Assembly (NCBI GenBank): GCA_028716705.1
Contig: JAQUPI010000005.1
Span: 1-63,929, forward strand
DNA length: 63,929 nt
Source: Candidatus Omnitrophota bacterium
Lineage (GTDB): Bacteria; Omnitrophota; Gorgyraeia; Gygaellales; Profunditerraquicolaceae
Direction: 5' to 3'
Below are positions 1,887-60,129 of the stretch, piece by piece; position 1 is the first letter of the stretch, and the number at the start of each line of letters is the position of its first letter. The position numbers were made by a program, and so were the translations under genes. Below the pieces are notes generated by a model that worked only from the letters and a program-made list of their open reading frames with translations, was not told where the DNA came from and did not search any database.

Positions 1887-1890
1887 GAAT

Positions 1891-43097: not shown

Positions 43098-43137
43098 CAT
43101 GGAGCTTAAAGAGCGGTTTGGATTAACAATAGAAAGA

Positions 43138-43171
43138 GGGATCCCGATAATTCAATGGGATTCCTTTTTTT
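43138..43171 (+). terminator. Rho-independent terminator after the ferritin-like gene
   Basis: Stem gggatccc (43138-43145) pairs with gggattcc (43157-43164): 8 bp including one G-U. 11-nt loop, followed by T7 (43165-43171). Confidence 0.65.
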
Positions 43172-43183
43172 ATGTGATATAAT
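43169..43183 (+). promoter_or_regulatory. Extended -10 promoter element (TGaTATAAT) of the gsp-like operon; the 15-mer is shared with 54107-54121
   Basis: tttatgtgatataat at 43169-43183. TGaTATAAT lies at 43175-43183, 27 nt before the gspE ATG. RBS ggaaagga. Confidence 0.5.
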
Positions 43184-43209
43184 GAATATGCCGGAAAGGA
43201 TAATATCTT

Positions 43210-44745
43210 ATGAGTATCCCCCATATAAAACTCAAGGATAGGCAGATCCAGCCTTCGGTTATCCAAAAGGTCCCCGCCAAATTCTCCAGCCACTATAAAA
43301 TCGTCCCTGTTGAGCTTAACGACAGCACGTTGACCATCGCCATGGCAGATCCTCTTGACGTACGCGCGCTTGATGACATAAAACTCCTGCTCGGGGTCAA
43401 TGTCGAAGCGGTCCTGGCCAGCGAACTGGAAATAGAAGAAGCCATACGCAAATATTACGGTGTAGGCGCGGAAACCCTGGAGAGCATGGTCTCCAAAGAA
43501 ACAGTTTCCAGGGAGATCATCCGGGAAAGAGAGAAAATTGAGGATGTGGAAAACCTCGCCGAAGACGCCTCGATCATAAAATTTGTCAACCAGATCTTGT
43601 CGGAAGCGGTAAAAGACAGAGCGACCGATATCCACCTTGAGCCGTTTGAAGATGAATTGCGCACGAGGTTCCGGATCGACGGTATGTTATACAGCATAAA
43701 TATCCCCGCGACCATCCGGTATTTCCACCCGGCGATCGTATCCCGCGTAAAGATCATGGCTAATTTGAATATCGCCGAACGCAGGCTGCCCCAGGACGGC
43801 AGGATAAAGATAAAAGTCGATGAGAATGAACTGGACCTTCGCGTCTCCATAATGCCCACAGCGTTCGGGGAAGCGGTGCACATAAGGATATTAAGCCCAA
43901 GTTTCTTCCTGGAATTGAAGAAATTAGGGTTATTGCCGGAGGATCTGGCGATCATCGAGCAGGTCATCCATAAGCCTCACGGTATCATCTTTGTTACCGG
44001 GCCCACAGGATCCGGGAAATCCACTACGCTATACGCCTGCCTGGCGCACATTAACGCCAATGCTGTCAAGATAATCACCATAGAGGATCCGATCGAATAC
44101 CAGTTAAGGGGAGCCAACCAGATACAGGTAAACCCTAAGATAGGGTTGGATTTCGCCGCGGGCCTGCGCCATATTTTAAGGCACGATCCGGATATCATGA
44201 TGGTCGGAGAGGTCCGGGATTATGAAACTGCCGAGACCGCCATACGCTCGGCGCTTACCGGCCACCTTGTGTTCTCCACCCTGCACACAAACGACGCTGC
44301 CGGAGCGATCACCCGGCTCCTGGATATGAAAATAGAGCCGTTTTTAGTATCTTCTTCCCTGGAGTGCCTCATCGCTCAAAGGCTGGTCAGGTTGATCTGC
44401 CCGAAATGCAAAGAGCCCGTTAAGTCAAAAGAAGACATCCTCAGGCAGCTTAAAGACGAGAAAATAGATCTGGATAAGGCAGCTTTCTATGAAGGCAAAG
44501 GCTGCGAAGAGTGCAGGTTTACCGGTTACCGGGGAAGGACCGCCATATACGAGATACTGAATATCAATGAGCCGATCAGAAGGATGGTCCTCGAGCAAGC
44601 TTCCAGCCAGCAGATAAAACAAAAAGCTGTTTCTCTGGGAATGAGGACATTACGCCAGGACGGATTGCAAAAAGTTTTTTCCGGCCTGACCACTTACAGC
44701 GAGGTTTTAAGGGTCACGCAGCAGGAAGAGCTTCCTGAAGGATAA
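43210..44745 (+). CDS. gspE: GspE/PilB-family type IV filament assembly ATPase
   Basis: 511 aa. T2SSE_N-like N-terminus (LTIAMADPLDVRALDDIKLLLG). Walker A GPTGSGKST. Asp box, Walker B and His box. Tetracysteine CPKC..CEEC. Confidence 0.9.
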   Translation: MSIPHIKLKDRQIQPSVIQKVPAKFSSHYKIVPVELNDSTLTIAMADPLDVRALDDIKLLLGVNVEAVLASELEIEEAIRKYYGVGAETLESMVSKETVSREIIREREKIEDVENLAEDASIIKFVNQILSEAVKDRATDIHLEPFEDELRTRFRIDGMLYSINIPATIRYFHPAIVSRVKIMANLNIAERRLPQDGRIKIKVDENELDLRVSIMPTAFGEAVHIRILSPSFFLELKKLGLLPEDLAIIEQVIHKPHGIIFVTGPTGSGKSTTLYACLAHINANAVKIITIEDPIEYQLRGANQIQVNPKIGLDFAAGLRHILRHDPDIMMVGEVRDYETAETAIRSALTGHLVFSTLHTNDAAGAITRLLDMKIEPFLVSSSLECLIAQRLVRLICPKCKEPVKSKEDILRQLKDEKIDLDKAAFYEGKGCEECRFTGYRGRTAIYEILNINEPIRRMVLEQASSQQIKQKAVSLGMRTLRQDGLQKVFSGLTTYSEVLRVTQQEELPEG

Positions 44746-45957
44746 ATGCCGCGTTATTTGTACACCGCCAAGTCCCAGCCGCAAAAGATAGAGCAGGGAG
44801 AGATAGAAGCGGATTCCCAGCTCGACGCCGTGAACAGGCTGGCGAAAACCGGCCATTTCCCCGTCACCATAGAATTAGAGGAAACATTCGCTTTAAATAA
44901 GAACGGTATCTTAAAACTGCGCAGGTTCTCTAAAAGCGATACCGCCGTTTTCACCCGCCAATTATCCACGTTAATAGAGTCAGGCGTAAATCTGCTTAAA
45001 GGCCTCACTATAATTTACAGCCAGTCGCGCGATAAATATTTAAAGGCGGTATTGAGCGATGTCATCGGGCAGGTAAAAGACGGAAAACCCCTTTCCGAGA
45101 GCCTTGCCCGGCACCCCGGTCTTTTTTCTGATCTATATACCTCGATGGCGCGTTCAGGTGAGGTAGGCGGGAACATTGAAGAGGCGCTCAAGCGCCTGGC
45201 CGATCACCTGGATAAAGAAGAAGAATTCAAGAATTCTATCCGCGCCGCCCTGACCTATCCTTTATTTGTATTGGGCGTGGGGGCTTTGACCATAATCGTG
45301 CTTTTAGGCTTTGTCATCCCGAAATTGGTAGAGATGTTCGAGGATATGGGGGAGGCACTGCCTTTACCCACGAAGATCCTGATCGGAATTTCCAACGGGC
45401 TGCGCTCTTATTGGTGGGTCATAATAGCCGTAATCGTTATTCTGGCTTTCTTATTTCAAAGGTTATTACGCGCGGAGAAAGGAATGATTTTCTGGAGCGG
45501 GTTCAAACTTAAGTTAAAGGTCTGGGGCCCGATCACCTTAAAGAGCGAGATCAGCCGTTTAATGCGCACACTTTCGCTTTTACTCTCCAGCGGTATTGCT
45601 ATAGTTTATTCTTTGGATATATCCTCGAAAGTGATCAGTAATCATCTCATTAAGCTTGAAGTGCAAAAATTCAAAGAGCAGATAAGCAGGGGTTTGAGCC
45701 TTTCGCGCTGTTTGAATAATTCCAGGATCTTCCCGGAGCTTGCGGCCAGTATAGTCGCTATCGGGGAAGAGAGCGGTACGCTGGAGGTATCGCTGGCGCG
45801 CATAGCGGATGATTACGAAAGGGATGTCGACCGCTCGCTCAAGGCATTAAGCAGGTTATTGGAGCCGGTAATGATCCTGGTGATGGGCTTGATCGTCGGT
45901 TTTATCGTCCTTTCGATGCTCTTGCCGATATTCCAGATCAACCTTCTGGTGCGTTAA
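44746..45957 (+). CDS. gspF: GspF/PilC-family inner-membrane platform protein
   Basis: 403 aa. Two T2SSF repeats (FTRQLSTLIESGVNLLKGL and LMRTLSLLLSSGIAIVYSL) and three TM segments. Confidence 0.9.
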   Translation: MPRYLYTAKSQPQKIEQGEIEADSQLDAVNRLAKTGHFPVTIELEETFALNKNGILKLRRFSKSDTAVFTRQLSTLIESGVNLLKGLTIIYSQSRDKYLKAVLSDVIGQVKDGKPLSESLARHPGLFSDLYTSMARSGEVGGNIEEALKRLADHLDKEEEFKNSIRAALTYPLFVLGVGALTIIVLLGFVIPKLVEMFEDMGEALPLPTKILIGISNGLRSYWWVIIAVIVILAFLFQRLLRAEKGMIFWSGFKLKLKVWGPITLKSEISRLMRTLSLLLSSGIAIVYSLDISSKVISNHLIKLEVQKFKEQISRGLSLSRCLNNSRIFPELAASIVAIGEESGTLEVSLARIADDYERDVDRSLKALSRLLEPVMILVMGLIVGFIVLSMLLPIFQINLLVR

Positions 45958-45959
45958 AT

Positions 45960-46346
45960 ATGAGAAAGAACGCATTTACGCTGATCGAATTAATGCTCGT
46001 TGTGATCATTATCGGCGTTCTTTCGGCTATGGTCATGCCGAGGTTAGTAGGACGCTCGGAACAGGCGCGCATGGCGGCCGCCGGAGCCGATATCAACGGA
46101 AACATCGCCATAGCTTTGGATATGTTTCAGCTCGATACGGGGGAATATCCCGAAAAGTTGGAAGACTTAAGGCAAAATCCCGGAAGGGATGCTTGGAAGG
46201 GGCCTTATCTGAAAAAAGACCCAAAGGACCCCTGGGGCAGGCAGTATAAATACGAGCTTGTAAGCTCGGGTGCGGAAGGAGAATATAAACTCTGTTCTGA
46301 TGGCGCGGATGAGGCGGATTCAGGCGATGATCTTTGTAACGAATGA
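45960..46346 (+). CDS. gspG: GspG-type major pseudopilin
   Basis: 128 aa. Prepilin signal MRKNA/FTLIELMLVVIIIGVL. T2SSG-type C-terminus (GPYLKKDPKDPWGRQYKY). Confidence 0.85.
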   Translation: MRKNAFTLIELMLVVIIIGVLSAMVMPRLVGRSEQARMAAAGADINGNIAIALDMFQLDTGEYPEKLEDLRQNPGRDAWKGPYLKKDPKDPWGRQYKYELVSSGAEGEYKLCSDGADEADSGDDLCNE

Positions 46347-46797
46347 CAAAAAAGGGTTTACCTTTATAGAACTCTTGATAGTCGTCATCATAGTGGCTAT
46401 TTTAACCGGCGTATCTGCGCCTAAATTAAAAAGGGCCTTTGATAACCTGAGCCTTCAAAATTTTGTAAAGGATATCTATTATTTAAGCTGTTACCTGCAG
46501 GCGCGCGCCATCAGCGAAGGAAGGACCTATTGTTTGAATATCGATAAGGATAGCGGGTTTTTGCGTCCGGCTTACCAGGAGGCCGACACAACTTTAAAGG
46601 AGATAACCGGCAGGTTCGGTAAAGGTCTCAATGTTCCGGAAGGCGTAATCATAACCGAGAGCCCTAAAGGCAAGGAGAGCATATTTTTTTATCCCGACTC
46701 GAGTGTGGATAAAGTAACTTTGGCCTTCGAGAATAAGAGTAAAGATACAGCGACGCTTCTCCTGAAAGGGATTTCCGGTGAAATCAAGATGCAATAA
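46327..46797 (+). CDS. Minor pseudopilin, GspH-like
   Basis: Start chosen at MIFVTNDKKG/FTFIELLIVVIIVAIL (the track start 46270 lies inside gspG). About 156 aa. Confidence 0.65.
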   Translation: MIFVTNDKKGFTFIELLIVVIIVAILTGVSAPKLKRAFDNLSLQNFVKDIYYLSCYLQARAISEGRTYCLNIDKDSGFLRPAYQEADTTLKEITGRFGKGLNVPEGVIITESPKGKESIFFYPDSSVDKVTLAFENKSKDTATLLLKGISGEIKMQ

Positions 46798-47167
46798 AGC
46801 TTTTAGTTTACTGGAGGCGTTGATCGCCACGGCGGTCGTTTCGGCCACAGTTATACTTATCTTCCGTTCTTTCGCCGCCGCTTTATCTTCCGCCCGTCTT
46901 AGCCTGAACATGAGTATGGCGAATTATCTGGCTGCCGATAAGTTATGGGAGATAGAAGAGGCCTGCGCGGTTAAAGGCGGTATCCTGCCCGGACCAACTT
47001 CCGCGAAAATAGCCGGGACTGATTTTGATTGCGGTTATGAGATAGCGGATATTGACGGCTCTTTCGCGGATTTAAAGCGGTTAAAGCTGGTTATCTCCTG
47101 GAGGGAGAGTATGCGTCTTGGAGATTATTCCGTGGATTTCCTGACTTACCTGAGGCCCAGGCAATGA
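46778..47167 (+). CDS. Minor pseudopilin, GspI-like
   Basis: 129 aa, GTG start. MKSRCNKA/FSLLEALIATAVV. Confidence 0.6.
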   Translation: MKSRCNKAFSLLEALIATAVVSATVILIFRSFAAALSSARLSLNMSMANYLAADKLWEIEEACAVKGGILPGPTSAKIAGTDFDCGYEIADIDGSFADLKRLKLVISWRESMRLGDYSVDFLTYLRPRQ

Positions 47168-47748
47168 AAAAAGGAATAACCCTGCTTGAGCTTTTGATAA
47201 CATCTTCGATCTTTTCCGTGATCATATTGAGCTTATACTCGGCCATGCATACCGGCATCATGAGTTATAACAGGTTGGATTCAGCTTCCCGGGCGTATCA
47301 TTCCGCCAGGCTTATCCTCGACAGGCTTGAGCGAGATCTGAGCGGCGCGTTTATTTATTCGGTGGATGGGGCTTTTTTCAAGGGGTCAGTTTCCGAAGTC
47401 GAGTTCTTTAAAAGCGGCCCCGATGAGGATCTTTGCCGCGTTAGATACACTTTTAACGGTGAAGTTTTGGAACGCGCCTGTTATCACGGAATGGAAGCGT
47501 TAAGGCGCGAGCCTGAGGTTCCGGCGGAGGAATTATCCGGCAATGTCAAGGAGATCGCTTTTGAATACGCTTCTTTAGCCCTGAACCCGCAGGGCCGCGG
47601 ATGGCAGAAGTCCTGGCCGCAGGAGAATAACGCTTCAGAAGCGTTCTCTCTTCCGCCAGCCGTCAAGGTAAGACTTTTACTGATCGATCCGGGAAAGCGC
47701 AAAAACCCCGCTTTATTGGAAGTAAGCCGGGTTATACCTTTGCATTAG
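47164..47748 (+). CDS. Minor pseudopilin, GspJ-like
   Basis: 194 aa. MKKG/ITLLELLITSSIFSVI. ATGA overlap with the upstream gene. Confidence 0.6.
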   Translation: MKKGITLLELLITSSIFSVIILSLYSAMHTGIMSYNRLDSASRAYHSARLILDRLERDLSGAFIYSVDGAFFKGSVSEVEFFKSGPDEDLCRVRYTFNGEVLERACYHGMEALRREPEVPAEELSGNVKEIAFEYASLALNPQGRGWQKSWPQENNASEAFSLPPAVKVRLLLIDPGKRKNPALLEVSRVIPLH

Positions 47749-47757
47749 AGGATCGGA

Positions 47758-48759
47758 GTGAAAGATAAAGGTTCTGTGTTGATGATAAGTATGTGGATCG
47801 TGGTAATTTTGGCGATGATGGCCGTAGGCTTGGGTTGGCGGGCCTCGATCAATTTAAAGATGAGCGGTATGCAAAGAGACAGGATGAAGGCGTATTTCCT
47901 GGCGAAGGCGGGATTGCAAAGAGCGATCCTGGAATTAGAGAGCGATAAAAATGATTTTGACAGCCTTAATGAAACCTGGAGCAGCGGTAAGGATCACATG
48001 GGAAAGAGCGTCTTTGAGAATATCGGGATTGGGGAAGGCCCCGGCGGGTCTTTCAGCGTCGGAATAATCGATGAAGACAGCCGGATAAATGTGAATACGG
48101 CTCCGGCATTGCTGATAACCGCGCTGTTGAAAGAATGCGGGATCTCTTCCGAAGAAGCGAACGGGCTAAGTGAGTATATTTGTCTTTGGCGGGGAGACGA
48201 TAACCCTGGTTATAAAAAAGAAGCACAACCGGTATTATTTAAGAGATCTCCCCTGATGAATAAAGCGGAGTTATCGGCGGCCTTCGAATGCTTTTATGAA
48301 AGATCCGGCAGGGATGATTACCTTTTACAAGCCAAGGCCTTATACGCAAAGTTGAAAGATTTGATCACGGTTTACCCGGCGAAGGGAGAAGCTAAAGTGA
48401 ATATAAATACGGTAAGCGCGGCCGCGCTTAAGCCGTTGATAGATAGAGCCCTTGCCAGCCTGCGCGCCGAAGGACAGGATATCAGCTTCGATCCGTCAAC
48501 CTTAAGGGAGAAGATCCTGGAGCACCGCGAGGATAATAATTTCAGCGATACAAAACTGAGAGAAGCTATAGATATAAGCGGACCGGATGAAACAGCCTGC
48601 GAAATGATCTTAAGCAAATTAGAAGAGTCGATCAAGACAAGATCGCGGGAATTCTTGATTACGGTCAGGGCAGAGGCCGCCAAGGCCGGAGCCACGCGCT
48701 TAATTAAGTGCGTCTATGACCGGGAGGATGACAAGGTAGTTTATTGGTCTCAAAATTAA
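47758..48759 (+). CDS. gspK: GspK-like minor pseudopilin
   Basis: 333 aa, GTG start. GSVLMISMWIVVILAMMAVGL; IIDEDSRINVNTA (the typical GspK D-E-x-x-K/R-hydrophobic-N-hydrophobic-N motif); helix-hairpin-helix-like region. Confidence 0.75.
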   Translation: MKDKGSVLMISMWIVVILAMMAVGLGWRASINLKMSGMQRDRMKAYFLAKAGLQRAILELESDKNDFDSLNETWSSGKDHMGKSVFENIGIGEGPGGSFSVGIIDEDSRINVNTAPALLITALLKECGISSEEANGLSEYICLWRGDDNPGYKKEAQPVLFKRSPLMNKAELSAAFECFYERSGRDDYLLQAKALYAKLKDLITVYPAKGEAKVNINTVSAAALKPLIDRALASLRAEGQDISFDPSTLREKILEHREDNNFSDTKLREAIDISGPDETACEMILSKLEESIKTRSREFLITVRAEAAKAGATRLIKCVYDREDDKVVYWSQN

Positions 48760-48761
48760 AG

Positions 48762-50099
48762 ATGAGTAAATTATTCGTTTGCCAGGTTGAAGGGGATTCC
48801 GTAAAGCTGATCATTATGCGGGGCCGAAAAGGAGAGGCCGCGCGCTACCGGCAGTTGCCGTTAAAAGATCTTGTTCCGGAATTAAAGAGGCTCGGTTTTA
48901 ACAACGATAATATGATCTTTTCTTTGCCGCGAAGCCTTGCCGCCTCACGCTACATAAAAATACCTTCGCATTCCCCTCCGGAAATCGAAAGGATGGTAAA
49001 TCTTCAGGCCCCGAGATTCCTTCCTTACCCCGCGGAGGAGCTGATCACCGGGTTTGAAATAGTATCTTTGGAAAAGGACGGCTCTTCCCGGATAAATCTT
49101 GCCATCGCGCAAAAAGACACGATCAACCGTTTGTTGGGATCATTAAGCGGGTTAAAAAGGGCCAAAATAGATGTTTTCATCAGTTCGTACGGGCTTTGCG
49201 GCCTTTATAATCATTTTATCCCGAAGGGTAAGGGCGCTACGGCGCTTATTGACGCGGACGCGGGGGGAATGGAATTAGCCGTTGTTTTAAACGGAAAACT
49301 CGCTTTCAGCCGCCATTCGAAATTTGACGCTTCTCCGGGCTGGAAGAGTTTTTTTATCGAAGAGCTGAAGAAAACCAGGGATTCTTACGCTAAGGAAATT
49401 TCGCCCGAGCCCTGGCAGAGAATATATGTATTCGGGAAAACCGCGTTTTCGGAACAGGTCAAAGGGGTCCTGAATGAGCAGGCCCAATACCCCGTCGAAG
49501 CCGTAACGTATGGAAATTCAGCGGATTCCGAGGCTTCCTTTGCCGCGTTGACCGGGTTAGGGTTGAAGAAAACGAAGGATGATTATTTCAGCCTGCTGCC
49601 CGCGGATCTAAAAGCGGGATACAGGAGGATAGCGCGAAGAAAAAAGGCCGCCAGGATAATTATCTGCGCCTGCGCCGTGGTACTTATAGTTATTTCCGCC
49701 TTCTCGAGGAATTTAAGGGCTAAGGCTGAATATGCCAAAGAGCTCAAAGAGCAGGCCGCCAGAATGGCAATAGAGGCTAAGCCTCTTGAGCGGATAGAGA
49801 AGGCCTTAAGGGTGATGGAGAGCCGCAGGAAGCCGGATATGATCGCGCTTAACGCGCTGTTCGAGCTGCATCAAGTCACGCCTGAAGGGATCTATCTGTA
49901 TAGTTTTAATTTTGAAGAGGGTAACGGCATCAGTGTCCGCGGACAAGCGCAGGAGCTTAATTCGGTATTTGAATTTCTTTCCTCCATGGAAAGATCGCCG
50001 GCCTTCAAGCGCTTCGGCCTGAAGGTAAAATACGCCGCGCATAAAAAGACACAATCGGGAGAAACCGTGGATTTCGAGATCTTTGGTTTAAAGAGATGA
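48762..50099 (+). CDS. PilM-like cytoplasmic domain fused through one TM segment to a PilN-like periplasmic domain (GspL/MshI-like)
   Basis: About 445 aa. N-terminal actin-like part (FSLPRSLAASRYIKIP, LIDADAGGMELAVV). TM segment AARIIICACAVVLIVISAF. C-terminal PilN-like fold. An alternative TTG start at 48744 is possible. Confidence 0.7.
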   Translation: MSKLFVCQVEGDSVKLIIMRGRKGEAARYRQLPLKDLVPELKRLGFNNDNMIFSLPRSLAASRYIKIPSHSPPEIERMVNLQAPRFLPYPAEELITGFEIVSLEKDGSSRINLAIAQKDTINRLLGSLSGLKRAKIDVFISSYGLCGLYNHFIPKGKGATALIDADAGGMELAVVLNGKLAFSRHSKFDASPGWKSFFIEELKKTRDSYAKEISPEPWQRIYVFGKTAFSEQVKGVLNEQAQYPVEAVTYGNSADSEASFAALTGLGLKKTKDDYFSLLPADLKAGYRRIARRKKAARIIICACAVVLIVISAFSRNLRAKAEYAKELKEQAARMAIEAKPLERIEKALRVMESRRKPDMIALNALFELHQVTPEGIYLYSFNFEEGNGISVRGQAQELNSVFEFLSSMERSPAFKRFGLKVKYAAHKKTQSGETVDFEIFGLKR

Positions 50100-50638
50100 C
50101 CCAGAGGATAAGAAAGATCATGAGCAGGCGCGAAAAAATGCTTTTATACGGAGCGGTATGCGTACTTTTTTCATACTTTTTCCTGCGTGTGATCATCTTT
50201 CCGATGATAAAAAGATACAGCGAATTGAACAGCGAAATACGCGTCAACAGGTTGAAATTACAAAAATACGCCCGGCTCTTATCGCAGAAGGATTCCATCC
50301 TCGCCAAGAATGACAGCCTTTCCAAGATCATGATCCTTTCTAAGGAAGAGGGGAGTTCCTCGGTCAGCGCCCTTTCCGAACTGGAAAACCTGGCGAAAAA
50401 CGCGAATATCCTGATCCTCGAGATCCGTCCTCAGTCCGTGAAAAGCACCTCATTACATAAAGAGATGGATATCGAATTAAAGACAGAGGGGGGTTTGCGG
50501 GATTATTTGAAATTTATGTATGATATTGAGCACTCCTTATCGTTATTAACTGTAAAAAAACTAAAGCTTAGCAGCCAGCCTAATACCCAAACGATTGAAG
50601 GCCTCTTCAGCATTTCCCAGCTTTCTATAACAGAGTAA
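50096..50638 (+). CDS. PilO/GspM/MshJ-like inner-membrane assembly protein
   Basis: 180 aa. One TM segment (LLYGAVCVLFSYFFLRVIIF), a coiled coil and a C-terminal alpha/beta part (LRDYLKFMYDIEHS). Confidence 0.6.
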   Translation: MTQRIRKIMSRREKMLLYGAVCVLFSYFFLRVIIFPMIKRYSELNSEIRVNRLKLQKYARLLSQKDSILAKNDSLSKIMILSKEEGSSSVSALSELENLAKNANILILEIRPQSVKSTSLHKEMDIELKTEGGLRDYLKFMYDIEHSLSLLTVKKLKLSSQPNTQTIEGLFSISQLSITE

Positions 50639-50663
50639 ATGAAGAAATTGTTTAAAAAAATGA

Positions 50664-50706
50664 TTGACAAAGTTTCGAGAGATGATATGCTCTCTACCTA
50701 GAGAGC
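50664..50706 (+). promoter_or_regulatory. Internal promoter TTGACA-16-TATGCT with an overlapping perfect palindrome GCTCTCTA-CC-TAGAGAGC (operator candidate)
   Basis: ttgaca at 50664-50669; tatgct at 50686-50691; inverted repeat at 50689-50706. The MerR-like gene ATG is at 50720. Confidence 0.55.
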
Positions 50707-50719
50707 ATAAGGTAATAAT

Positions 50720-50941
50720 ATGCGTAATGTATACTTGATCAAGGACTTAGCCCGCATTACCGGCTATTCTATCCACACACTTAAATTCTATCTGAAAACG
50801 GGTTTAATCAAGGAAGCCAGCCGCAGTCCCGAGACCAGGTACCGTTATTTCGACGACGCCAATGTCGAACAGTTAAAAAAGATCCGCACCCTGAGAAAGT
50901 CGGGAAAATCCCTGCGCCAGATCAAAGATGAGCTACTATAA
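50720..50941 (+). CDS. Mini MerR-family HTH protein (DNA-binding domain only)
   Basis: 73 aa. YLIKDLARITGYSIHTLKFYLKTGLI..RYRYFDDANVEQLKKIRTLRKSGKSLRQIK. No effector or long coiled-coil region. Confidence 0.75.
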   Translation: MRNVYLIKDLARITGYSIHTLKFYLKTGLIKEASRSPETRYRYFDDANVEQLKKIRTLRKSGKSLRQIKDELL

Positions 50942-51752
50942 GCTATTTGACCTTCAGAGGGAGCCTTTTTCGACAAGCCCTGACCCGGAATTTTTCTTTC
51001 ATTCCCACAGCCACGGAACAGCGCTTAAGCGTTTAGAGATATCCGTGCGCCTTCGCCGCGGCTTAAATCTTATTTTAGGCGATGTGGGTACCGGAAAGAC
51101 AACGCTGGCTCGCGCGTTCCTGAATTCGTTTTCCGGTGAAGATAACTATATATTCCACATGATCCTTGATCCGGGTTATAAGTCCGAATTCCAATTTCTT
51201 TTTGCCCTGGTGAAGATGTTCGGTATTTCCGTCCCCTTCAAGTCCACGCTGGATTTCAAGGAAGAGCTGGAGAAGTACCTCTTTCAGAAAGGCGTGGATG
51301 AGAATAAAACCATTGTGCTGGTCATTGACGAGGCGCAGAAGATAAACAGCGAGAATCTGGAGGTATTAAGGACGCTTCTGAATTTCGAGACTAATGAATT
51401 TAAGCTTCTCCAGCTGGTTCTCATCGCGCAGACGGAAGTCCTGCCCAGAATAACGCGGATACGTAATTTTATGGACAGGATAGCGTTGAAGTACACCATT
51501 AACCCGCTGGATGAGAAGGAAACCAGGGAGATGGTCCAATTCCGGTTAAGGCAGGCGGGGTATAATAATAAGAAAGAGCTTTTCTCGGAGGAGGCATCAA
51601 AACTTATATACCAGGCCACGCAGGGCTACCCCCGCAAGATATCCATGCTCTGCCATGACGCCCTGGAGGCGGCCGTAATGCGGGAACGCGATTCCGTGGA
51701 CGCGGATATGATCAGATATATAATCGAACGCGAAAGAAGAAATGAAGGATAA
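50928..51752 (+). CDS. ExeA/GspA/MshM-like AAA+ ATPase (ATPase module only)
   Basis: 274 aa. Walker A GDVGTGKTTL; Walker B VLVIDEAQ; LVLIAQ. 14-nt overlap with the MerR-like gene. No TM segment or peptidoglycan-binding domain. Confidence 0.8.
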   Translation: MSYYKLFDLQREPFSTSPDPEFFFHSHSHGTALKRLEISVRLRRGLNLILGDVGTGKTTLARAFLNSFSGEDNYIFHMILDPGYKSEFQFLFALVKMFGISVPFKSTLDFKEELEKYLFQKGVDENKTIVLVIDEAQKINSENLEVLRTLLNFETNEFKLLQLVLIAQTEVLPRITRIRNFMDRIALKYTINPLDEKETREMVQFRLRQAGYNNKKELFSEEASKLIYQATQGYPRKISMLCHDALEAAVMRERDSVDADMIRYIIERERRNEG

Positions 51753-52272
51753 CGCTTCACCCGAAGAAAGATTATTAAAGCTGATCCGGGGAGAAAAGAA
51801 ACAGGGCCCGGCGCTTGACCGCCCCAAGGCGAACAAATTTATACCGTTTATCCTGCCGGCTGTATCAGCGATCCTGATCTTCGCGCTAGTCCTTCCCCGC
51901 TTTTTTCCTAAAAAAACCGATTTGGCCGTAGAGGAGAGAAAAGAGGACGCGGAAGCCTTGCCTCCGGCAGGCGAAGAGGCCAGGCCTTATGAGTATTACG
52001 CTCAGGGGCCGGCCCGTGATATTTTTGGGGCGCCGGCTTCTGATCCTTCCGCGGCTTCGGCGGTTAAGGGGGAGGCGCAGTCGTTTAATGATATTACCTT
52101 GATAGGTATCATCGGCGGCGAAAGCCCTCAGGCTGTCATAGAGGATAAAAAATCGCAGAAAACTTATACCCTTTCCGAGGGGCAGTTCCTGGGAGATTTC
52201 CAGGTAGAAAAGATACTGGAAGGCAAAGTTATTTTGATCTCCAACGGCCGCAGGTACGAGCTTAATATATAA
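51742..52272 (+). CDS. PilP / GspB / MshK-like single-pass protein
   Basis: 176 aa. TM segment FIPFILPAVSAILIFALVL. C-terminal ITLIGIIGGESPQAVIEDKKSQKTYTLSEGQFLGDFQVEKILEGKVILISNGRRYEL parallels the C-terminus of ORF 3028-3420. Confidence 0.55.
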   Translation: MKDNASPEERLLKLIRGEKKQGPALDRPKANKFIPFILPAVSAILIFALVLPRFFPKKTDLAVEERKEDAEALPPAGEEARPYEYYAQGPARDIFGAPASDPSAASAVKGEAQSFNDITLIGIIGGESPQAVIEDKKSQKTYTLSEGQFLGDFQVEKILEGKVILISNGRRYELNI

Positions 52273-52284
52273 ACCGGAGGAAAT

Positions 52285-54090
52285 ATGAGAAATAAACTTT
52301 TATCCTTTTTAATTATTTTAGCGCTTTCCTGGAGCAGCGCGTTTGCGCAGAATACCATCTCCCTCGACCTGAAAGGCATGGATATAGTGGACGCGTTAAA
52401 AATACTGGCCAGCCGGGCGGGTATGAATATCGTGGTCGGCAAGAATGTCTCCGGCAAGGTCACGCTTTTCCTGAAAGACGTCGACGTGCGGGAAGCGCTT
52501 GAGATAATCCTGCTCTCCAACGACCTGGCATGCGAAGAGAAAACGGGCATTATCAGCGTAATGACGCAGAGAGAATATGAGCTTATTTACGGCCGGCGCT
52601 ACCAGGAGAAGAAGTCGACGAAGGGTATTCAGCTGAAATACGCCAAAGCCGCTGATGTTTCCAAGGCCTTAAGCCAGATCAAGAGTAATGTTGGCAAGAT
52701 CGTGACTGATGAGGCATCCAATACGGTTTTTTTGGTAGATTCTACGGAAAAGATCGCGGAGATGGAGGAGGTAATTAAAAACCTGGATCTGCCCCTTGAG
52801 ACCAGGTTTTTTGCCTTAAACTACGCACAGGCGGATAAGCTCAACGCGAAGATACAGGATGTTTTATCAAAAGGCGCCGGTACAATGAAGATAGATGAGC
52901 GCACCAATAAGATAGCGGTAACCGACTATCCACGCAAACTTGATGAAATAACGGCGATAATCAACGCCTTCGACGAGAAGACCCTGCAGGTATTGATAGA
53001 CGCGCAGGTCATCGAAATAAAGCCTTCCGATAAATTCGAAATGGGTATCGACTGGGACTATTGGATAAAGAATCATTTTCGGGTCAGTTCCGCCTTGCCC
53101 GTGGGAACAACGGGAAGGCTTTTGGTAGGCACGGATAATACAACCCCCGCCAGCCCGGGAGATTATAAGGCGGTAGTCGACCTTCTGCGGACTATCGGAG
53201 ACATAAAAATACTCTCCAGCCCCAGGATCATGGCTTTAAATAACCAGGAGGCAAAGATCCATGTAGGGACAAAAGACGCTTACATCACCTCAACCACCTC
53301 TCAGGGCGGAACAGGCACGGCGATTACTTCGCAAAGCGTGAATTTCGTGGATACGGGGATAAAACTTTTTGTAACGCCTACAGTGAACAGGGACGGGTTC
53401 GTGACCATGAAGATAAGGCCGGAGGTGAGTTCGGCTACCCGGACGAATATCACATCCGAAGGCCAGATCACCCAGATACCCATAGTAAGCACTTCCGAGG
53501 CGGAAACCACCATAATGATCAAAGACGGAGTGACCGTGATCATCGGGGGATTGAAAAAGAATGAGCGCAGCAGGGAAGAGAAAAGGGTCCCTATCCTTGG
53601 AAGCATCCCGGTTTTGGGGTGGCTTTTTGGAAGCACGGTAGATGACGCCCGGAGCACAGACCTGGTTATTCTTTTGACGCCGCATATTGTGAGCGCGGAG
53701 AGGCCCTTTTCCGACTTCCGGGATTTAAAGACCGAAGACAGCATAACCGCCGAAATGGTTAAAGGAGAAATAATCATCGAAGGCCCGGCCGGCAATCCGG
53801 AAGAGGAAGAGCCCGGTTTCAGGAAACTTTCAGACTACCGGGGCCTTATCGCGGAAAGAATAAGCACCCTGGCGGCATTTGAGGATGACCGGGGGCAAAA
53901 AGGTAAAGTAGAGCTGTCCTTCGCGCTGAACGCCGACGGGTCCTTAAGCGGCGAACCTGTGGTGGTCTCTTCCACTAATAAAGCCCTGGACGACATATCC
54001 CTTCGCTCTGTAAAAAAAGCGTCTCCCTTCCCATACCTTCCTGAAGGAAAAGAAAAAGAAAATTTCCGGGTCAGCCTGCTGTACAAATAA
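52285..54090 (+). CDS. Secretin (GspD/PilQ/MshL family) with a C-terminal TonB_C-like domain
   Basis: 601 aa. Signal peptide ..SSAFAQ. N0-like ISLDLKGMDIVDALKIL. Secretin core LSSPRIMALNNQEAKI and VIIGGLKKN..VPILGSIPVLGWLFG. Tail YRGLIAERI..GKVELSFALNADGSLSGEPVVVSSTNKALDDISLRSVKKASPFPYLP. Confidence 0.85.
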   Translation: MRNKLLSFLIILALSWSSAFAQNTISLDLKGMDIVDALKILASRAGMNIVVGKNVSGKVTLFLKDVDVREALEIILLSNDLACEEKTGIISVMTQREYELIYGRRYQEKKSTKGIQLKYAKAADVSKALSQIKSNVGKIVTDEASNTVFLVDSTEKIAEMEEVIKNLDLPLETRFFALNYAQADKLNAKIQDVLSKGAGTMKIDERTNKIAVTDYPRKLDEITAIINAFDEKTLQVLIDAQVIEIKPSDKFEMGIDWDYWIKNHFRVSSALPVGTTGRLLVGTDNTTPASPGDYKAVVDLLRTIGDIKILSSPRIMALNNQEAKIHVGTKDAYITSTTSQGGTGTAITSQSVNFVDTGIKLFVTPTVNRDGFVTMKIRPEVSSATRTNITSEGQITQIPIVSTSEAETTIMIKDGVTVIIGGLKKNERSREEKRVPILGSIPVLGWLFGSTVDDARSTDLVILLTPHIVSAERPFSDFRDLKTEDSITAEMVKGEIIIEGPAGNPEEEEPGFRKLSDYRGLIAERISTLAAFEDDRGQKGKVELSFALNADGSLSGEPVVVSSTNKALDDISLRSVKKASPFPYLPEGKEKENFRVSLLYK

Positions 54091-54103
54091 ACAGGCGGCT
54101 CTT

Positions 54104-54129
54104 GGCTTTATGTGATATAATATAAAGCC
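54104..54129. promoter_or_regulatory. Perfect 8-bp inverted repeat GGCTTTAT-N10-ATAAAGCC enclosing TGaTATAAT; weak terminator and/or promoter/operator
   Basis: ggctttat at 54104-54111 and ataaagcc at 54122-54129. TGaTATAAT at 54113-54121 lies only 10 nt before ATG 54132, with no SD between. Confidence 0.45.
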
Positions 54130-54131
54130 AT

Positions 54132-56195
54132 ATGCCTGTATTTATTTTCCTGTTTATCAATTCCATAGTAGGATTAAGCGCCTATATCGCCGTTTACAAG
54201 CTATTCCAATATAAGGGTTTTGTTGACGCGCTGATCTGCTGGTTCGTCTTTTATTTCAGCCAGATCGCGTTGACCTCGCTTATATTGGGGGTCCTGTCCC
54301 AGCTTAGGCTAAGTAATCTTATTCTCCTGAATTTAATTACGCTGTTTTCCCTCTGGCTGGTTTCCAGAAAACGCGCTTCTTCCTTCGATCCGCGGCCCCT
54401 TAAGAATTCTCTGCCCGCGCTTTTTAGCAATAAAGTTATACTTTTGGCCCTAAGCGTAATTCTTTCCTTCGGCGTGGTCAAGATCTTCATAAATTTGGTT
54501 AATCCTCCTTTTGGATGGGACAGCTTGAATTACCATTTTACTTTTCCCGTCGAGTGGCTCAAAAACGCTAATCTGCATACGCCTATCACCGTTTTCGACG
54601 ACCCTTCCCCGAGTTATTACCCTATAGGGGCAAGCCTTTATTTCTTCTGGTTGATCTTGCCTTTTAAAAGCGTGTTTATGGCGGACTTGGGCCAGGTGCC
54701 CTTTTTTGTCCTCGCGTTTTTCGCGGTATTCTCTATATCAAGAAAACTGAGCTTAAACAGGGAATTTTCTTTCCTTGCCGCTTCGCTCTTCTTTATGATC
54801 CCGAATTTTTTTAAACAATTACAGATCGCCTACGCGGATGTGATGATGGCGGCCCTGTTCCTGGCCTGCCTGAATTCGCTTTTCCTGTTACGCGGGGAAT
54901 TCTCGCGGCGGAATACGCTGAGCTGGAGCCTGAGCCTGGGGTTAATGCTCTCCACAAAAACCGTTGCTTTGCCATACTCCGCCCTTTTAACCATCCCGTT
55001 CATTTATTTGACTGTGAAAAACATTAACCGGGTCTATTTATTTTTCTTCTCGGCTGCCGTCGTTTGCGCGCTAGGCGGATTCTCTTATATCAGGAACTTC
55101 ATAGAAGCTCAAAATCCGTTGTATCCGTTAAACCTGTCTTTTTGGGGCAGGGAGATCCTAAAGGGCCCGATCAGCGCCGCGGATTACAGGTCGCGTTTTA
55201 GCCTTGGAGATTACCGTTTTGTTAAAATGCTTTTTCACGAGGGCCTGGGTTTGCAGACACTCCTCTTTGTTTTGCCTGCTTCTTTTTTGGCTTTGCCAAT
55301 TGCCTTCATAAAAAAAAGGAGAGGGGTGGGTTTTTTCAAAGGTTACCTGTTCTGTCTGCCTGTTCTCCTCTTTTTGGCCTACCGTTTCATAATTCCCTAC
55401 GCGAATCTAAGATACTTATATCCGCTTTTGGGCCTGGGTGTTATCCTGGCTTTTTATACCGCGGATAAATTGAATTTGCCAAGATCATCGATAAATATCC
55501 TGAGCGCGATCTGCGTCATTAGCTCTATGGCGGAGCTGGCCAAGCGCAGGGAGCTGGTTACTTCAGCAATACTGGCGATTTTGATTTTCGCGTTATCCTT
55601 GATCATGATTATCCGGAGGCCGAGGATCCCGGTAAAAAAATCCGTTCTTTACATGGGGATCGTTATTTCGGCGGTCATTTCTTTGTTTGTCCTCCAGGAT
55701 TATTACATAAAAAATGAATACCCAAGATATTTAAAGATGGTAAAATACTCAGGTTTCTGGCCGGATGCCGCCAAGGCGTGGGATTGGCTGAACTCAAATA
55801 CAGAGGGAGATAATGTCGCTTACGCGGGCAGGCCCGTGCCTTTTCCGCTGTACGGGACAAATTTTAAGAACAATGTTTATTATGTTTCCGTAAATAAGAC
55901 AGAACCGGCAAAGCTGCATTATTTTCCCGATAGCGATTACGCGTGGGGGGAAGATTTCATAAGCCTGCATATGAGCTTCGAGGAAGAAGGCAATTACCGG
56001 GGTGGGGCGGATTTTTCCACCTGGATGAATAACCTGGGGAGGCGGGGCACGGATTATTTATTCGTTTATTCGCTGCACCAGACAAAAGAGCTCGCCTTTC
56101 CGGTGGAAGATGATTGGGCAAGGCAAAATAAAGTATTCTTCCGCCCCGTTTTTATCAACGATACCATACACATTTACAAGATCAGTAAAGGATAA
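54132..56195 (+). CDS. Large polytopic GT-C-fold-like glycosyltransferase (ArnT/PMT-like candidate)
   Basis: 687 aa. About 14 TM segments plus a ~170-aa C-terminal soluble domain. Loop motif PPFGWDSLNYH. Followed by a polyprenyl-P GT2. Confidence 0.5.
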   Translation: MPVFIFLFINSIVGLSAYIAVYKLFQYKGFVDALICWFVFYFSQIALTSLILGVLSQLRLSNLILLNLITLFSLWLVSRKRASSFDPRPLKNSLPALFSNKVILLALSVILSFGVVKIFINLVNPPFGWDSLNYHFTFPVEWLKNANLHTPITVFDDPSPSYYPIGASLYFFWLILPFKSVFMADLGQVPFFVLAFFAVFSISRKLSLNREFSFLAASLFFMIPNFFKQLQIAYADVMMAALFLACLNSLFLLRGEFSRRNTLSWSLSLGLMLSTKTVALPYSALLTIPFIYLTVKNINRVYLFFFSAAVVCALGGFSYIRNFIEAQNPLYPLNLSFWGREILKGPISAADYRSRFSLGDYRFVKMLFHEGLGLQTLLFVLPASFLALPIAFIKKRRGVGFFKGYLFCLPVLLFLAYRFIIPYANLRYLYPLLGLGVILAFYTADKLNLPRSSINILSAICVISSMAELAKRRELVTSAILAILIFALSLIMIIRRPRIPVKKSVLYMGIVISAVISLFVLQDYYIKNEYPRYLKMVKYSGFWPDAAKAWDWLNSNTEGDNVAYAGRPVPFPLYGTNFKNNVYYVSVNKTEPAKLHYFPDSDYAWGEDFISLHMSFEEEGNYRGGADFSTWMNNLGRRGTDYLFVYSLHQTKELAFPVEDDWARQNKVFFRPVFINDTIHIYKISKG

Positions 56196-56197
56196 AT

Positions 56198-56875
56198 ATG
56201 CCGCTACTCTCAGTAATAGTCCCGGTCTTTAATGAAGCCAAGACTATCGCAAGCATTTTAGAAAACATCGATTCCGTCCCTGTCGAAAAAGAGATAATCG
56301 TGGTCAACGACGGATCAACCGACGGCACCGATAAGATCCTGAGCGGGATAAAATACAATAACCTCAAGGTCATTCATCACATCAGTAACCGCGGCAAAGG
56401 CGCGGCGTTCCTGACCGGGTTGTCCCAGGCCGGGGGAGAATTTGTGATCATCCAGGACGCGGACCTGGAATACGACCCGAACGACTACTTGAAGCTAATG
56501 CAGGCGATAAAGGAGAATAACGCGGATATCGTCCTTGGCGCCAGGTTCACAAAGGGCTACCGCGGTTTATTCATACACAGCCTTGGGAACAGGATATTGA
56601 CCGTTTTGATGAACCTTTTATTTGATCTGAAGCTCAATGATTGTTTTACCTGTTATAAATTGTTCCGGAGGGAGACTATAAGGAAGCTGGGCCTGAAAGA
56701 GCAGAGTTTTACCATTGAGACCGAGATTGTGGCGAAAGCCGCGAAAGGCGGCCTGAAGATAATCGAAGTTCCGGTATCGTATCATCCCAGGAGTTACGCG
56801 CAGGGAAAGAAGATACGCTGCGGCGACGGGTTCCAGGCGATCAAAACCATATTTAAATACCGTATACATGAATAA
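56198..56875 (+). CDS. GT2 polyprenyl-phosphate glycosyltransferase (ArnC/GtrB/DPM1-like)
   Basis: 225 aa. VIVPVFNE, VVNDGSTDGT, NRGKGAA and IQDADLEYDP motifs. Confidence 0.8.
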   Translation: MPLLSVIVPVFNEAKTIASILENIDSVPVEKEIIVVNDGSTDGTDKILSGIKYNNLKVIHHISNRGKGAAFLTGLSQAGGEFVIIQDADLEYDPNDYLKLMQAIKENNADIVLGARFTKGYRGLFIHSLGNRILTVLMNLLFDLKLNDCFTCYKLFRRETIRKLGLKEQSFTIETEIVAKAAKGGLKIIEVPVSYHPRSYAQGKKIRCGDGFQAIKTIFKYRIHE

Positions 56876-60113: not shown

Positions 60114-60129
60114 GGCGAGGCTGGAACCA

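Follow-up and report, generated by a model that had tools for sequence, protein, structure and literature searches.

A putative type II secretion-type gene cluster with a permuted gene order in the phylum Omnitrophota

Results

A cluster of thirteen genes on one strand

We have analysed a stretch of 63,929 nucleotides (nt) from Candidatus Omnitrophota bacterium (Gorgyraeia; Gygaellales; Profunditerraquicolaceae; contig JAQUPI010000005.1 of assembly GCA_028716705.1, positions 1 to 63,929), the whole of which we call the window, and within it a cluster of 13 genes at positions 43210-54090 that probably encodes a lineage-specific member of the type IV filament superfamily, of the type II secretion system (T2SS) type and conserved in one clade of Omnitrophota. 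The 13 genes lie on the + strand (as do all the genes of the 64-kb window), abut or overlap one another and follow the order E-F-G-H-I-J-K-MN-O-MerR-A-P-Q, with the gene for the secretin (Q) at the end. Families were assigned with Pfam and NCBIfam profiles together with hhalign alignments to the Gsp proteins of E. coli. The original prediction had described a single co-directional operon with the secretin last rather than first; all 13 genes are present, the family assignments hold and the gene order bears out the position of the secretin. It had also remarked on the lack of a prepilin peptidase and of a GspC bearing a PDZ domain, and indeed neither is encoded anywhere in the window. GspO, GspN and GspS are likewise absent from the locus, no gene for a PilT-like retraction ATPase was found in the cluster or the window, and Rfam and tRNA scans of the window gave no matches. 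The features of the cluster, numbered by position in the window, are as follows (aa, amino acids; TM, transmembrane).

43175-43183, + strand: extended -10 element TGATATAAT, candidate promoter of the unit from E to O (single match in the window)
43210-44745, + strand: E, GspE-like assembly ATPase, 511 aa (PF00437, 2e-136)
44746-45957, + strand: F, GspF-like inner-membrane platform protein, 403 aa (PF00482, two copies)
45960-46346, + strand: G, GspG-type major pseudopilin, 128 aa (TIGR01710, PF08334)
46327-46797, + strand: H, GspH-like minor pseudopilin (N_methyl; weak matches to TIGR01708 GspH and ComGD)
46778-47167, + strand: I, GspI-like minor pseudopilin, 129 aa (weak N_methyl; position between H and J)
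47164-47748, + strand: J, GspJ minor pseudopilin, 194 aa (N_methyl; PF11612 T2SSJ, TIGR01711)
47758-48759, + strand: K, GspK-like large minor pseudopilin, 333 aa, no Glu5 (NF037980, PF03934)
48762-50099, + strand: MN, PilM-TM-PilN fusion (PilM_2 and PilN domains)
50096-50638, + strand: O, GspM/PilO-like bitopic protein, 180 aa (NF040576 GspM_XpsM)
50664-50709, + strand: predicted internal promoter and candidate operator (promoter scan, inverted-repeat search)
50720-50941, + strand: mini-MerR, 73 aa, a winged-helix DNA-binding domain alone (PF13411 MerR_1, 1e-17)
50928-51752, + strand: A, soluble AAA+ ATPase of the GspA/ExeA/MshM family, 274 aa (AAA_22; TIGR03015)
51742-52272, + strand: P, GspC-like protein without PDZ domain, 176 aa (PF11356 T2SSC, 26 bits against a cutoff of 27)
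52285-54090, + strand: Q, secretin, 601 aa (PF00263, 2e-48)

The pseudopilins, the assembly ATPase and the platform protein

The filament genes had been judged to look like those of a T2SS, and the profiles agree. The major pseudopilin G has the leader MRKNA/FTLIELM and a C-terminal DPWG..Y.Y motif, passes the equivalog cutoff of TIGR01710 (104.7 bits against 88.85) and aligns with E. coli GspG over its full length (hhalign, 3e-36). Full-length alignments with the corresponding E. coli Gsp proteins were also obtained for all four minor pseudopilins: residues 2-144 of H with 4-157 of GspH, residues 5-120 of I with 3-112 of GspI, the whole of J with GspJ, and residues 3-323 of K with 5-313 of GspK (96% probability). 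In addition, J scores 36.4 bits against PF11612, above the cutoff of 28, and K scores 72 bits (4e-20) against the GspK model NF037980, under its cutoff of 130. The open reading frame (ORF) of H opens at 46270 and its start is uncertain; the gene probably begins at 46327, which gives the leader MIFVTNDKKG/FTFIELL and an overlap of 20 nt with G, an overlap that is likewise seen in the orthologous locus L090.

The assembly ATPase E contains the T2SSE_N alpha/beta and N2/CTE domains and a tetracysteine motif. Its best model is TIGR02533 (GspE), at 611 bits against a cutoff of 630, with the PilB model at 581 bits, and by hhalign it is closer to E. coli GspE (7.5e-98) than to HofB. In a neighbour-joining (NJ) tree the Omnitrophota proteins join E of a T2SS from Indioceanicola with 100% bootstrap support and then ExeE/GspE with 81%, with Firmicute PilB and MshE outside; the two MshE proteins form a clade of their own at 100%. 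The pairwise scores of the window protein run in the same direction, from 345-359 bits for MshE through 405 for ExeE to 436 for the Indioceanicola protein. All trees reported here are rough NJ trees with 100 bootstraps and few taxa, but they agree with the profile scores; besides the references for the mannose-sensitive haemagglutinin (MSHA, or MSH) system described below, they draw on the exe genes of Aeromonas, the gsp and hof genes of E. coli, the Indioceanicola T2SS and a Clostridial PilB/T/C locus. The platform protein F is best matched by TIGR02120 (GspF; 391 bits, cutoff 424), with PilC models reaching 311 bits at most, and by hhalign it aligns better with GspF (2e-61) than with HofC.

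We note that E of the window begins about 60 residues later than its close orthologs, which are about 570 aa long (L001:661-2379 and L081:3613-5319). What the window protein lacks is the N-terminal helical MshEN module of the orthologs, about 60 aa; this module matches the MshEN domains that bind c-di-GMP in PilB, PilF and MshE. No remnant of the missing coding sequence was found in the upstream DNA (window 43098-43209); the place of the module is taken by intergenic DNA with the extended -10 element TGATATAAT.

The inner-membrane platform

The ORF of the M-N fusion opens at 48744 (451 aa), and the NCBI gene call, of 445 aa, begins at 48762, which is probably the start. An actin-like cytoplasmic domain is followed by a single TM segment (residues 299-317 of the 451-aa form) and a PilN-like domain, which is the topology of GspL. 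A profile of the family (20 members, about 35% identity across the family) matches Myxococcus xanthus PilM at 1e-30 and PilN weakly, and gives no match to GspL structures or to ExeL/GspL. In bits, the same profile scores 87 against the separate PilM and 25 against the separate PilN that are encoded near the start of the window, 29 against the L-like protein of the Indioceanicola T2SS, and 28.5 and 20 against MshI of Legionella and Aeromonas, respectively. The adjoining protein O has a TM segment at residues 15-33 and matches GspM_XpsM (NF040576) at 37 bits (2e-9), below the cutoff of 60; its profile scores 32 bits against the PilO of the window and 19 bits against Legionella MshJ. Aligning the family profiles by hhalign with individual GspL, GspM, GspC, GspB and GspA sequences of E. 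coli gave nothing informative.

Similarities of this kind bear on whether the cluster might instead encode a genuine surface pilus, that is, an adhesion or host-attachment fibre of the type IVa pilus (T4aP) or MSH kind, made of the GspG-like subunit and serving attachment to a host or prey. T2SS pseudopilins form surface fibres when overexpressed, T4aP models give the best scores for the M-N fusion, the PilO-like protein and the secretin, the raw scores of E put PilB nearest among structures, and the orthologs of E carry an MshEN domain of the PilB/MshE type; furthermore, an epibiotic or predatory life that depends on pili has been inferred for Omnitrophota (PMC10066038). Against a pilus of this sort, the major subunit is a 128-aa GspG equivalog accompanied by a complete H-I-J-K set with a GspK-like cap, E groups with T2SS ATPases, the periplasmic domain of P (below) is closer to GspC than to PilP, the cluster has no retraction ATPase, and the same window holds a separate T4aP pilMNOPQ set. 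We therefore regard a surface pilus, the main rival of a T2SS-type machine, as unlikely, if by no means negligible.

The GspC-like protein, the secretin and a linked ATPase

Protein P consists of a cytoplasmic N-terminus with a nearly invariant PEExLLxLI motif, a TM segment (residues 30-54), a linker and a domain with the fold of the GspC homology region (HR) and of PilP (residues 118-176), for which the AlphaFold2 (AF2) model has a predicted local distance difference test (pLDDT) score above 90. Its homologs mostly match PF11356, and the name given by JGI is PulC. The family profile matches the HR domain of GspC from enterotoxigenic E. coli (3oss_C) at 1.4e-4, and Foldseek returns the same structure first (target-normalised TM-score, TMt, 0.82; root-mean-square deviation (rmsd) 1.3 Å), followed by PilP, LspC and the HR domain of PulC. 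Because profile and fold both lead to the GspC HR domain, we take P to be a GspC-like HR-domain protein without a PDZ domain. It had been called PilP/GspB-like, but the closest relative by profile and by fold is the HR domain of GspC.

The secretin has a signal peptide, an N0/STN domain, two Secretin_N domains and the secretin domain, and then a linker of about 45 aa that leads to a C-terminal TonB_C domain (residues 516-600, approximately nt 53830-54084; PF03544, 8e-9; TIGR01352, 39 bits against a cutoff of 27.1). A jackhmmer search of C-terminal tails found TonB_C in 17 of 98 secretins from Omnitrophota loci, these 17 being the members of the ortholog clade of the window secretin, and wherever the upstream genes of this clade were captured the gene order is the permuted one. 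Full-text literature searches found no description of a secretin-TonB_C fusion. In the NJ tree the Omnitrophota secretins form their own clade, which is neither GspD nor MshL.

ATPase A matches TIGR03015 over its full length (5e-55) and has a Walker A motif (GDVGTGKTT) and a DEAQ box; it has no TM or hydrophobic segment and, in the Pfam scan, no peptidoglycan-binding domain. Its profile scores 214 bits against Aeromonas ExeA and 183 and 181 bits against MshM, and its nearest solved structures are MuB and Cdc6/ORC1. In the NJ tree the Omnitrophota proteins again form their own clade, apart from MshM and ExeA, which group together. The gene for P lies directly upstream of 66 of the 101 secretins in the fetched loci, and in 55 of those 66 A is upstream as well, whereas 10 other secretins have an A paralog downstream instead. 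Throughout the phylum, it appears, secretin genes are as a rule linked to that of an AAA+ ATPase, in two arrangements or more. The loci L023, L043, L048, L049, L050, L060, L063, L067, L071 and L073 hold a second secretin without upstream A and P genes, and in such second-secretin loci a divergent AAA+ paralog (about 130 bits) is found some 1.5 kb downstream.

The question of an MSHA hybrid

The locus had been read as a hybrid of a T2SS and the MSHA pilus. References for the MSH system were obtained by querying PLSDB with an artificial fusion of secretin and ATPase, a query that favours adjacent mshL and mshM genes, and came from an Aeromonas caviae chromosome that is filed as a plasmid and from a Legionella adelaidensis plasmid annotated with mshL. 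PLSDB contains several records that resemble whole chromosomes (NZ_AP026896.1, NZ_CP141089.1, NZ_CP064203.1 and NZ_CP154629.1), the chromosome-like records being those of Aeromonas caviae (4.9 Mb), E. coli (4.9 Mb), A. baumannii (4.0 Mb) and Acetoanaerobium (2.6 Mb); the Aeromonas and Acetoanaerobium records are the sources of our Exe, MSH and Clostridial PilB/T/C references. A Photobacterium homolog of the AAA+ ATPase (L087) was dropped as an MSH reference, having no filament-system neighbours, and in the PDB the N-domain of MshE (5htl) is the one MSH reference.

With these references in place, none of E, F, the secretin and A groups with MSH, and the hybrid is not upheld. The phylogenies that had been proposed as a check place E with T2SSs and the secretin in a clade of its own, the tree of F resolves no placement, and no family goes with MSH. 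The hybrid reading would make the locus an evolutionary chimera in which an assembly and outer-membrane subcomplex of MSHA type (MshI, J, K, L and M) has been joined to T2SS filament genes. The list of components does parallel MSH: M and N are fused, the ATPase consists of an AAA+ domain alone, PilO-like and small PilP-fold proteins accompany a secretin, and the locus is free of a peptidase. In the MSH model MshM is mandatory as a marker, and a peptidase is missing from MSH loci (PMC6668835). Profile matches to MshI, MshJ and MshK also exist, at a weak 14-28 bits. The gene content is as had been described, but by profile score its members are closer to PilM, PilO, GspC and ExeA than to their MSH counterparts: the M-N fusion resembles PilM much more than it does MshI, A scores ExeA over MshM with both of these grouping apart from the Omnitrophota clade, and the MshL pair stands apart from the window secretin with 100% support, in keeping with a score of 188 against the MshL model TIGR02519 (cutoff 250). 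Moreover, the cluster has no gene for the tetratricopeptide-repeat (TPR) protein MshN, its order is unlike mshIJKLMN, and Omnitrophota relatives carry the same proteins in canonical gsp order, which argues for vertical divergence and rearrangement and not for the fusion of two systems. MSH ancestry is not required in any case, because T2SSs too have GspA-type ATPases as accessories, the topology of the M-N fusion is that of GspL and a GspC HR domain is present. We consider such a chimera very unlikely.

Recurrence and gene order in related genomes

That the order might recur in related metagenome-assembled genomes (MAGs) was a further proposed check, and it does recur. Among 80 loci taken from GTDB species genomes and annotated with the window proteins, the same gene order is found in at least 10 Omnitrophota species genomes. 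The order E-F-G-H-I-J-K-MN-O-MerR-A-P-Q is identical in L001, L002, L009 and L066 and is also kept in L090; L089 shows it minus a called G-type pilin, and L003, L006, L008, L011 and L012 show it with minor differences. In L081 and L082 the order is E-F-MN-O-A-P-Q, with no pilin genes in between and no MerR gene adjoining A. Two loci from more distant Omnitrophota are arranged as P-Q-E-F-G-H-J-K-MN-O (L017) and as A-P-Q, a gap, and then E-F-G-I-J-K-MN-O (L025). Since L017 and L025 thus follow the canonical gspC-D-E-...-L-M order, the order of the window is a circular permutation of that order and not a different plan; on the evidence of gene order and predicted promoters, the locus is a circular permutation of the canonical one, split into two transcription units. 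The order had been called non-canonical, which is right as regards the terminal secretin but, in the light of L017 and L025, amounts to a permutation.

Homologs of the secretin are numerous, at 56-68% identity, and the named ones are all labelled Omnitrophota. An identical secretin occurs in L088 (NCBI JAQTUM010000001.1; assembly GCA_028710245.1), on a contig that ends about 2 kb downstream, while the window runs on for 9.8 kb and so belongs to a different, longer assembly of that genome or of one nearly identical to it. The possibility that the flanks of the cluster are conserved was rejected: each species has other genes next to the cluster, which therefore behaves as a module in its own right, and among the compared loci no gene for a substrate is kept beside it. 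A scan of genome contigs with the M-N fusion as the single query gave no match, and neither did a tblastn search of plasmids with the same protein.

Two predicted promoters, a palindrome and a mini-MerR protein

Both of the promoters originally proposed are plausible. In orthologous loci a TTTACA-N17-TATAAT is conserved at the corresponding place before E, which makes the extended -10 at 43175-43183 a plausible promoter of the first unit, and the internal promoter is footprinted in 15 loci. The latter lies in the 81-nt gap before the mini-MerR gene, where a -35 element (TTGACA, 50664-50669) is followed 16 nt on by a -10 element (TATGCT, 50686-50691). This -10 forms the left end of a perfect palindrome, TATGCTCTCTA-CC-TAGAGAGCATA, at 50686-50709. 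The palindrome core, CTCTCYA-NN-TRGAGAG, occurs once in the window against an expectation of 0.17; each of 13 related loci has exactly one copy, located between O and MerR/A in every case. When 15 loci are aligned, TTGA and CTC.C..TAGAGAG do not vary, unlike the bases around them. The conserved promoter can be written TTGACA-N17-TATGCT, overlapping the palindrome CTCTCTA-NN-TAGAGAG. We judged an RNA hairpin to be an unlikely explanation of the palindrome, because the predicted -10 lies inside its left arm and the transcript would lack that arm.

The mini-MerR protein corresponds to residues 5-71 of BmrR/MtaN and has neither a coiled coil nor an effector domain. Its AF2 model (pLDDT 86) has DNA-bound MtaN as its best Foldseek match (query-normalised TM-score, TMq, 0.89; rmsd 1.1 Å), superposes on the MtaN winged helix and ends before the MerR coiled coil. 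It is the most conserved protein of the cluster, at 70-81% identity in more than 120 clusters, against about 60% for the secretin. Its gene overlaps that of A by 14 nt in nine of the nine loci checked (the window, L001, L002, L003, L006, L009, L014, L066 and L089), which suggests coupled synthesis.

This coupling prompts the question of whether mini-MerR and the ATPase, acting as a DNA-bound helix-turn-helix protein and an AAA+ remodeller of the initiator clade, might be regulators and nothing else: as a pair they would control how the secretin unit is transcribed, and A would have no part in secretin assembly. The invariable overlap, the lack of a membrane segment in A and the DNA-associated nature of its nearest solved AAA+ relatives (MuB, Cdc6 and ORC1) would all fit. 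On the other hand, A is homologous over its full length to the ATPase domains of ExeA (214 bits) and MshM (183 bits) and to TIGR03015, the triad of A, P and secretin is kept in most Omnitrophota loci without a detectable MerR gene, and L081 and L082 have A with no MerR gene adjacent. A regulatory pair pure and simple is, in our view, highly improbable.

Several related loci differ in detail around the mini-MerR gene (regions inspected: L008:7941-8220, L011:8040-8320 and L012:8380-8530). In L008 and L011 the reading frame is intact but has no ATG, GTG or TTG at the expected start, where an ATT or ATA start is possible; L012 retains only a truncated remnant of the gene, with promoter and palindrome intact. 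In L004 (508-630) a long inverted repeat, imperfect and with 58-nt arms made of tandem GAACCAAGGACCAA-type units, lies in the gap between O and MerR on the upstream side of the conserved promoter. Downstream of O in L006 (8128-8196) there is a hairpin with 30-nt arms, 93% complementary and flanked by A and T runs, which is consistent with a bidirectional terminator separating two transcription units.

Other genes of the window

The pilMNO-Q set at 870-5039, which had been noticed as a second, distinct machine, is real: it comprises PilM (338 aa), PilN, PilO and a 540-aa secretin without a TonB_C tail, has at the PilP position a 130-aa protein with weak T2SSB and CdsD_C matches, and is followed by an RNase E/G gene. 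From 16927 to 41728 runs a long region of polysaccharide-type biosynthesis genes, with several GT2 and GT4 glycosyltransferases, three B12-binding radical S-adenosylmethionine (SAM) proteins (one of them fused to a methyltransferase), several SAM methyltransferases, a carbamoyltransferase followed by an SxtJ-like protein, and a DUF3108 protein. Upstream of the operon, at 41901-43097, is the gene for a 398-aa protein of no Pfam family, whose sole match is a weak one (7e-5) to the erythrin-like part of the iron exporter MbfA. Directly 3' of the secretin gene (54132-58100 and 58090-61200) come first the genes for a 687-aa protein, a small GT2 protein and a Wzy_C protein (O-antigen ligase/PglL-type), and next those for two GT9 heptosyltransferases. 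The 687-aa protein has no Pfam or NCBIfam match, contains 11 or more hydrophobic segments and is not conserved beside the cluster in relatives. A link between these downstream genes and pilin glycosylation is conceivable.

Discussion

We have described a cluster of 13 genes that is, to judge from its protein sequences and modelled folds, a T2SS-type machine whose platform and secretin retain a T4aP-like character. T2SS and MSH both derive from the T4aP, and homologs of PilMNOP are found in both (PMC6668835); a T2SS-type machine with a T4aP-like platform and secretin fits this published derivation. That the machine belongs to the T2SS type, and that it is a lineage-specific version maintained in one Omnitrophota clade, seems to us the probable interpretation, and it rests on the GspG equivalog, the complete set of minor pseudopilins, the placement of E, the GspC-like HR domain of P and the canonical order kept by more distant relatives.

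A number of our own observations weigh against this interpretation. By raw phmmer score E reaches about 500 bits against PilB of Myxococcus and Geobacter, as against 423 for Vibrio GspE, and the tree of F gives no resolved placement. E, F, K and the GspM-like O all score under the NCBIfam equivalog cutoffs. The M-N fusion and O resemble PilM, PilN and PilO of T4aP rather than GspL and GspM. The secretin scores higher against the PilQ model (266 bits) than against those of GspD (TIGR02517, 238 bits) and MshL (TIGR02519, 188 bits), all of these scores being below the cutoffs (351 for GspD and 250 for MshL), and it falls outside the proteobacterial GspD clade with 89% and 100% bootstrap support. 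No prepilin peptidase (A24; GspO/PilD) is encoded within the 64-kb window, although the gene for this enzyme is often located elsewhere in a genome. Our trees are NJ trees with few references. Finally, all of the carrier organisms are uncultivated, and we infer binding of the palindrome by mini-MerR and the roles of the ATPase and of TonB_C.

The mechanism that we envisage is drawn mostly from homology. Hexamers of the GspE-like ATPase on the GspF-like platform would polymerise a short pseudopilus of GspG, primed by a tip complex of H, I, J and K. The PilM-PilN fusion would do the job of GspL, alongside its GspM/PilO-like partner, and the two together would hold ATPase E at the inner membrane and link it with the GspC-like protein of the periplasm; the HR domain of that protein would dock on the secretin N0 domain. 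The pseudopilus would then drive folded periplasmic proteins out through the secretin. As for ATPase A, it is genomically locked to P and the secretin throughout Omnitrophota, and it probably acts in the assembly or gating of the secretin, perhaps through the cytoplasmic N-terminal motif of P. The TonB_C domain, in turn, probably anchors or couples the secretin in the periplasm, either to peptidoglycan or to a beta-strand 'box' of a partner, and may replace the peptidoglycan-binding domain that A lacks.

The two predicted transcription units would divide the machine in a simple way. The first, from E to O, would supply the motor, the pseudopilus and the inner-membrane platform; the second, comprising mini-MerR, the AAA+ ATPase, the GspC-like protein and the secretin, would supply the outer-membrane module and would be read from a conserved promoter of the sigma-70 type whose -10 and start region are covered by the invariant palindrome of 16-18 bp. 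Most likely a dimer of mini-MerR binds this palindrome and represses its own unit. We favour repression over the DNA-twisting activation that is typical of classical MerR proteins because the site covers the -10 and start region and the promoter spacing is a normal 16-17 bp.

A bolder proposal goes further, to an early-diverging T2SS subtype with a still recognisable PilM-PilN fusion, in which the outer-membrane module is autonomous and separately regulated, mini-MerR and the AAA+ ATPase sense or control secretin assembly, and TonB_C couples the secretin to a partner. We hold this to be doubtful, and offer it for what would follow. If it were true, the cluster would be a snapshot of how GspL arose, and the 12-15 TonB_C domains of a ring would connect the channel with peptidoglycan, or with a partner or substrate that bears a TonB box, a mode of coupling not described for any secretin.

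Omnitrophota are uncultivated and are probably host-dependent nanobacteria, and to our knowledge T2SSs outside the Proteobacteria are largely uncharacterised. A T2SS-like locus has been reported beside giant genes in Omnitrophota, with GspD, GspE and GspF conserved across the phylum and a proposed role in predation (West-Roberts et al. 2023, 10.1101/2023.11.21.568195); that locus lies upstream of the giant ORFs and includes rcpC-type genes and a peptidyl-prolyl isomerase (PPIase) (10.1101/2023.11.21.568195), and a 2026 preprint repeats the observation. We considered and rejected a link between it and our cluster, because the window has no ORF above 750 aa and the content of the cluster differs. 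Seymour et al. 2023 applied TXSScan to Omnitrophota and discussed T4aP and Tad systems alone. The original prediction named no characterised system with the present combination, and we found none in the literature searched. This uncharacterised system is widespread in public MAGs under generic annotations, and its sequence as such is not new.

The cluster offers a compact and conserved case in which T2SS-type pseudopilins and ATPase are found with a platform that is still like PilM, PilN and PilO, and should be useful for tracing how T2SSs diverged from T4aP and how GspL originated by fusion. It also presents three oddities that can be tested. The secretin carries a TonB C-terminal domain as a fusion; across the phylum, the gene of a soluble ATPase of the GspA type is tightly linked to those of a GspC-like protein and a secretin; and a 73-aa MerR-type protein is accompanied by a sharply footprinted palindrome, the candidate operator of the outer-membrane module. 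The understanding of secretion would be unchanged unless a new mechanism of coupling or gating were demonstrated.

Compared with the canonical proteobacterial T2SS (Pul of Klebsiella, Eps of Vibrio, Gsp of E. coli and Exe of Aeromonas), the present system shares the GspE-type ATPase, a GspF-like platform, GspG and H-I-J-K, the GspC HR domain, a bitopic GspM-like protein, a secretin and an accessory ATPase of the GspA/ExeA family, and its Omnitrophota relatives keep the order C-D-E-F-G-H-(I)-J-K-L-M. It differs in its permuted order and two units, in the recognisable fusion of PilM and PilN at the position of GspL, in a P without PDZ domain or coiled coil, in a secretin that lies outside the GspD clade and carries TonB_C, and in having a mini-MerR gene and its candidate operator embedded in the cluster. 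The closest cultured homolog of E (44.8% identity) belongs to a non-canonical, uncharacterised T2SS on a plasmid of Indioceanicola profundi (NZ_CP030128.1; annotated by the Prokaryotic Genome Annotation Pipeline, PGAP). This locus is annotated with GspD, GspG, GspM and GspK, has a homolog of P, and encodes beside GspM a 'PilN domain-containing protein' as its L-equivalent, which matches our M-N profile; it has its own GspD-clade secretin, an A24 peptidase and another arrangement, and it lacks the AAA+ ATPase, MerR and the TonB_C tail.

With the MSHA pilus of the V. cholerae type the system shares a PilM/PilN-type protein (fused or split), a PilO-like and a small PilP-fold protein, a secretin, an AAA+-only ATPase (MshM in that system), a locus free of a peptidase and, in the orthologs of E, the MshEN domain. 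Here, however, the major subunit is a GspG and not an MshA-type pilin, the minor subunits align with GspH-K and not with MshB/C/D/O/P/Q, there is no MshN TPR gene, the order is not mshIJKLMN-EGF (compare the Legionella locus), and the resemblance of M-N, O and P to MshI, J and K is weaker than that to PilM, PilO and GspC. The PilMNOPQ proteins of T4aP (Myxococcus, Pseudomonas and Thermus) resemble M-N and O, and PilQ is the best profile for the secretin; in contrast to T4aP, M and N are fused here, PilT/PilU and a PilA-type pilin are absent, and the secretin is without AMIN domains. Classical members of the MerR family combine a winged helix-turn-helix (HTH) with a long dimerisation coiled coil and an effector domain and have their operator inside a -35/-10 spacer of 19-20 bp, whereas the protein described here is a winged HTH only and its palindrome covers the -10 and downstream sequence of a promoter with a 16-17-bp spacer. 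Lastly, ExeAB/GspAB of Aeromonas and Vibrio have a homologous AAA+ domain and a genetic linkage to the secretin. ExeA is a bitopic protein of 547-571 aa with a periplasmic peptidoglycan-binding domain, whereas the ATPase described here is soluble, and the only candidate for an anchor in the periplasm is the TonB_C tail of the secretin itself.

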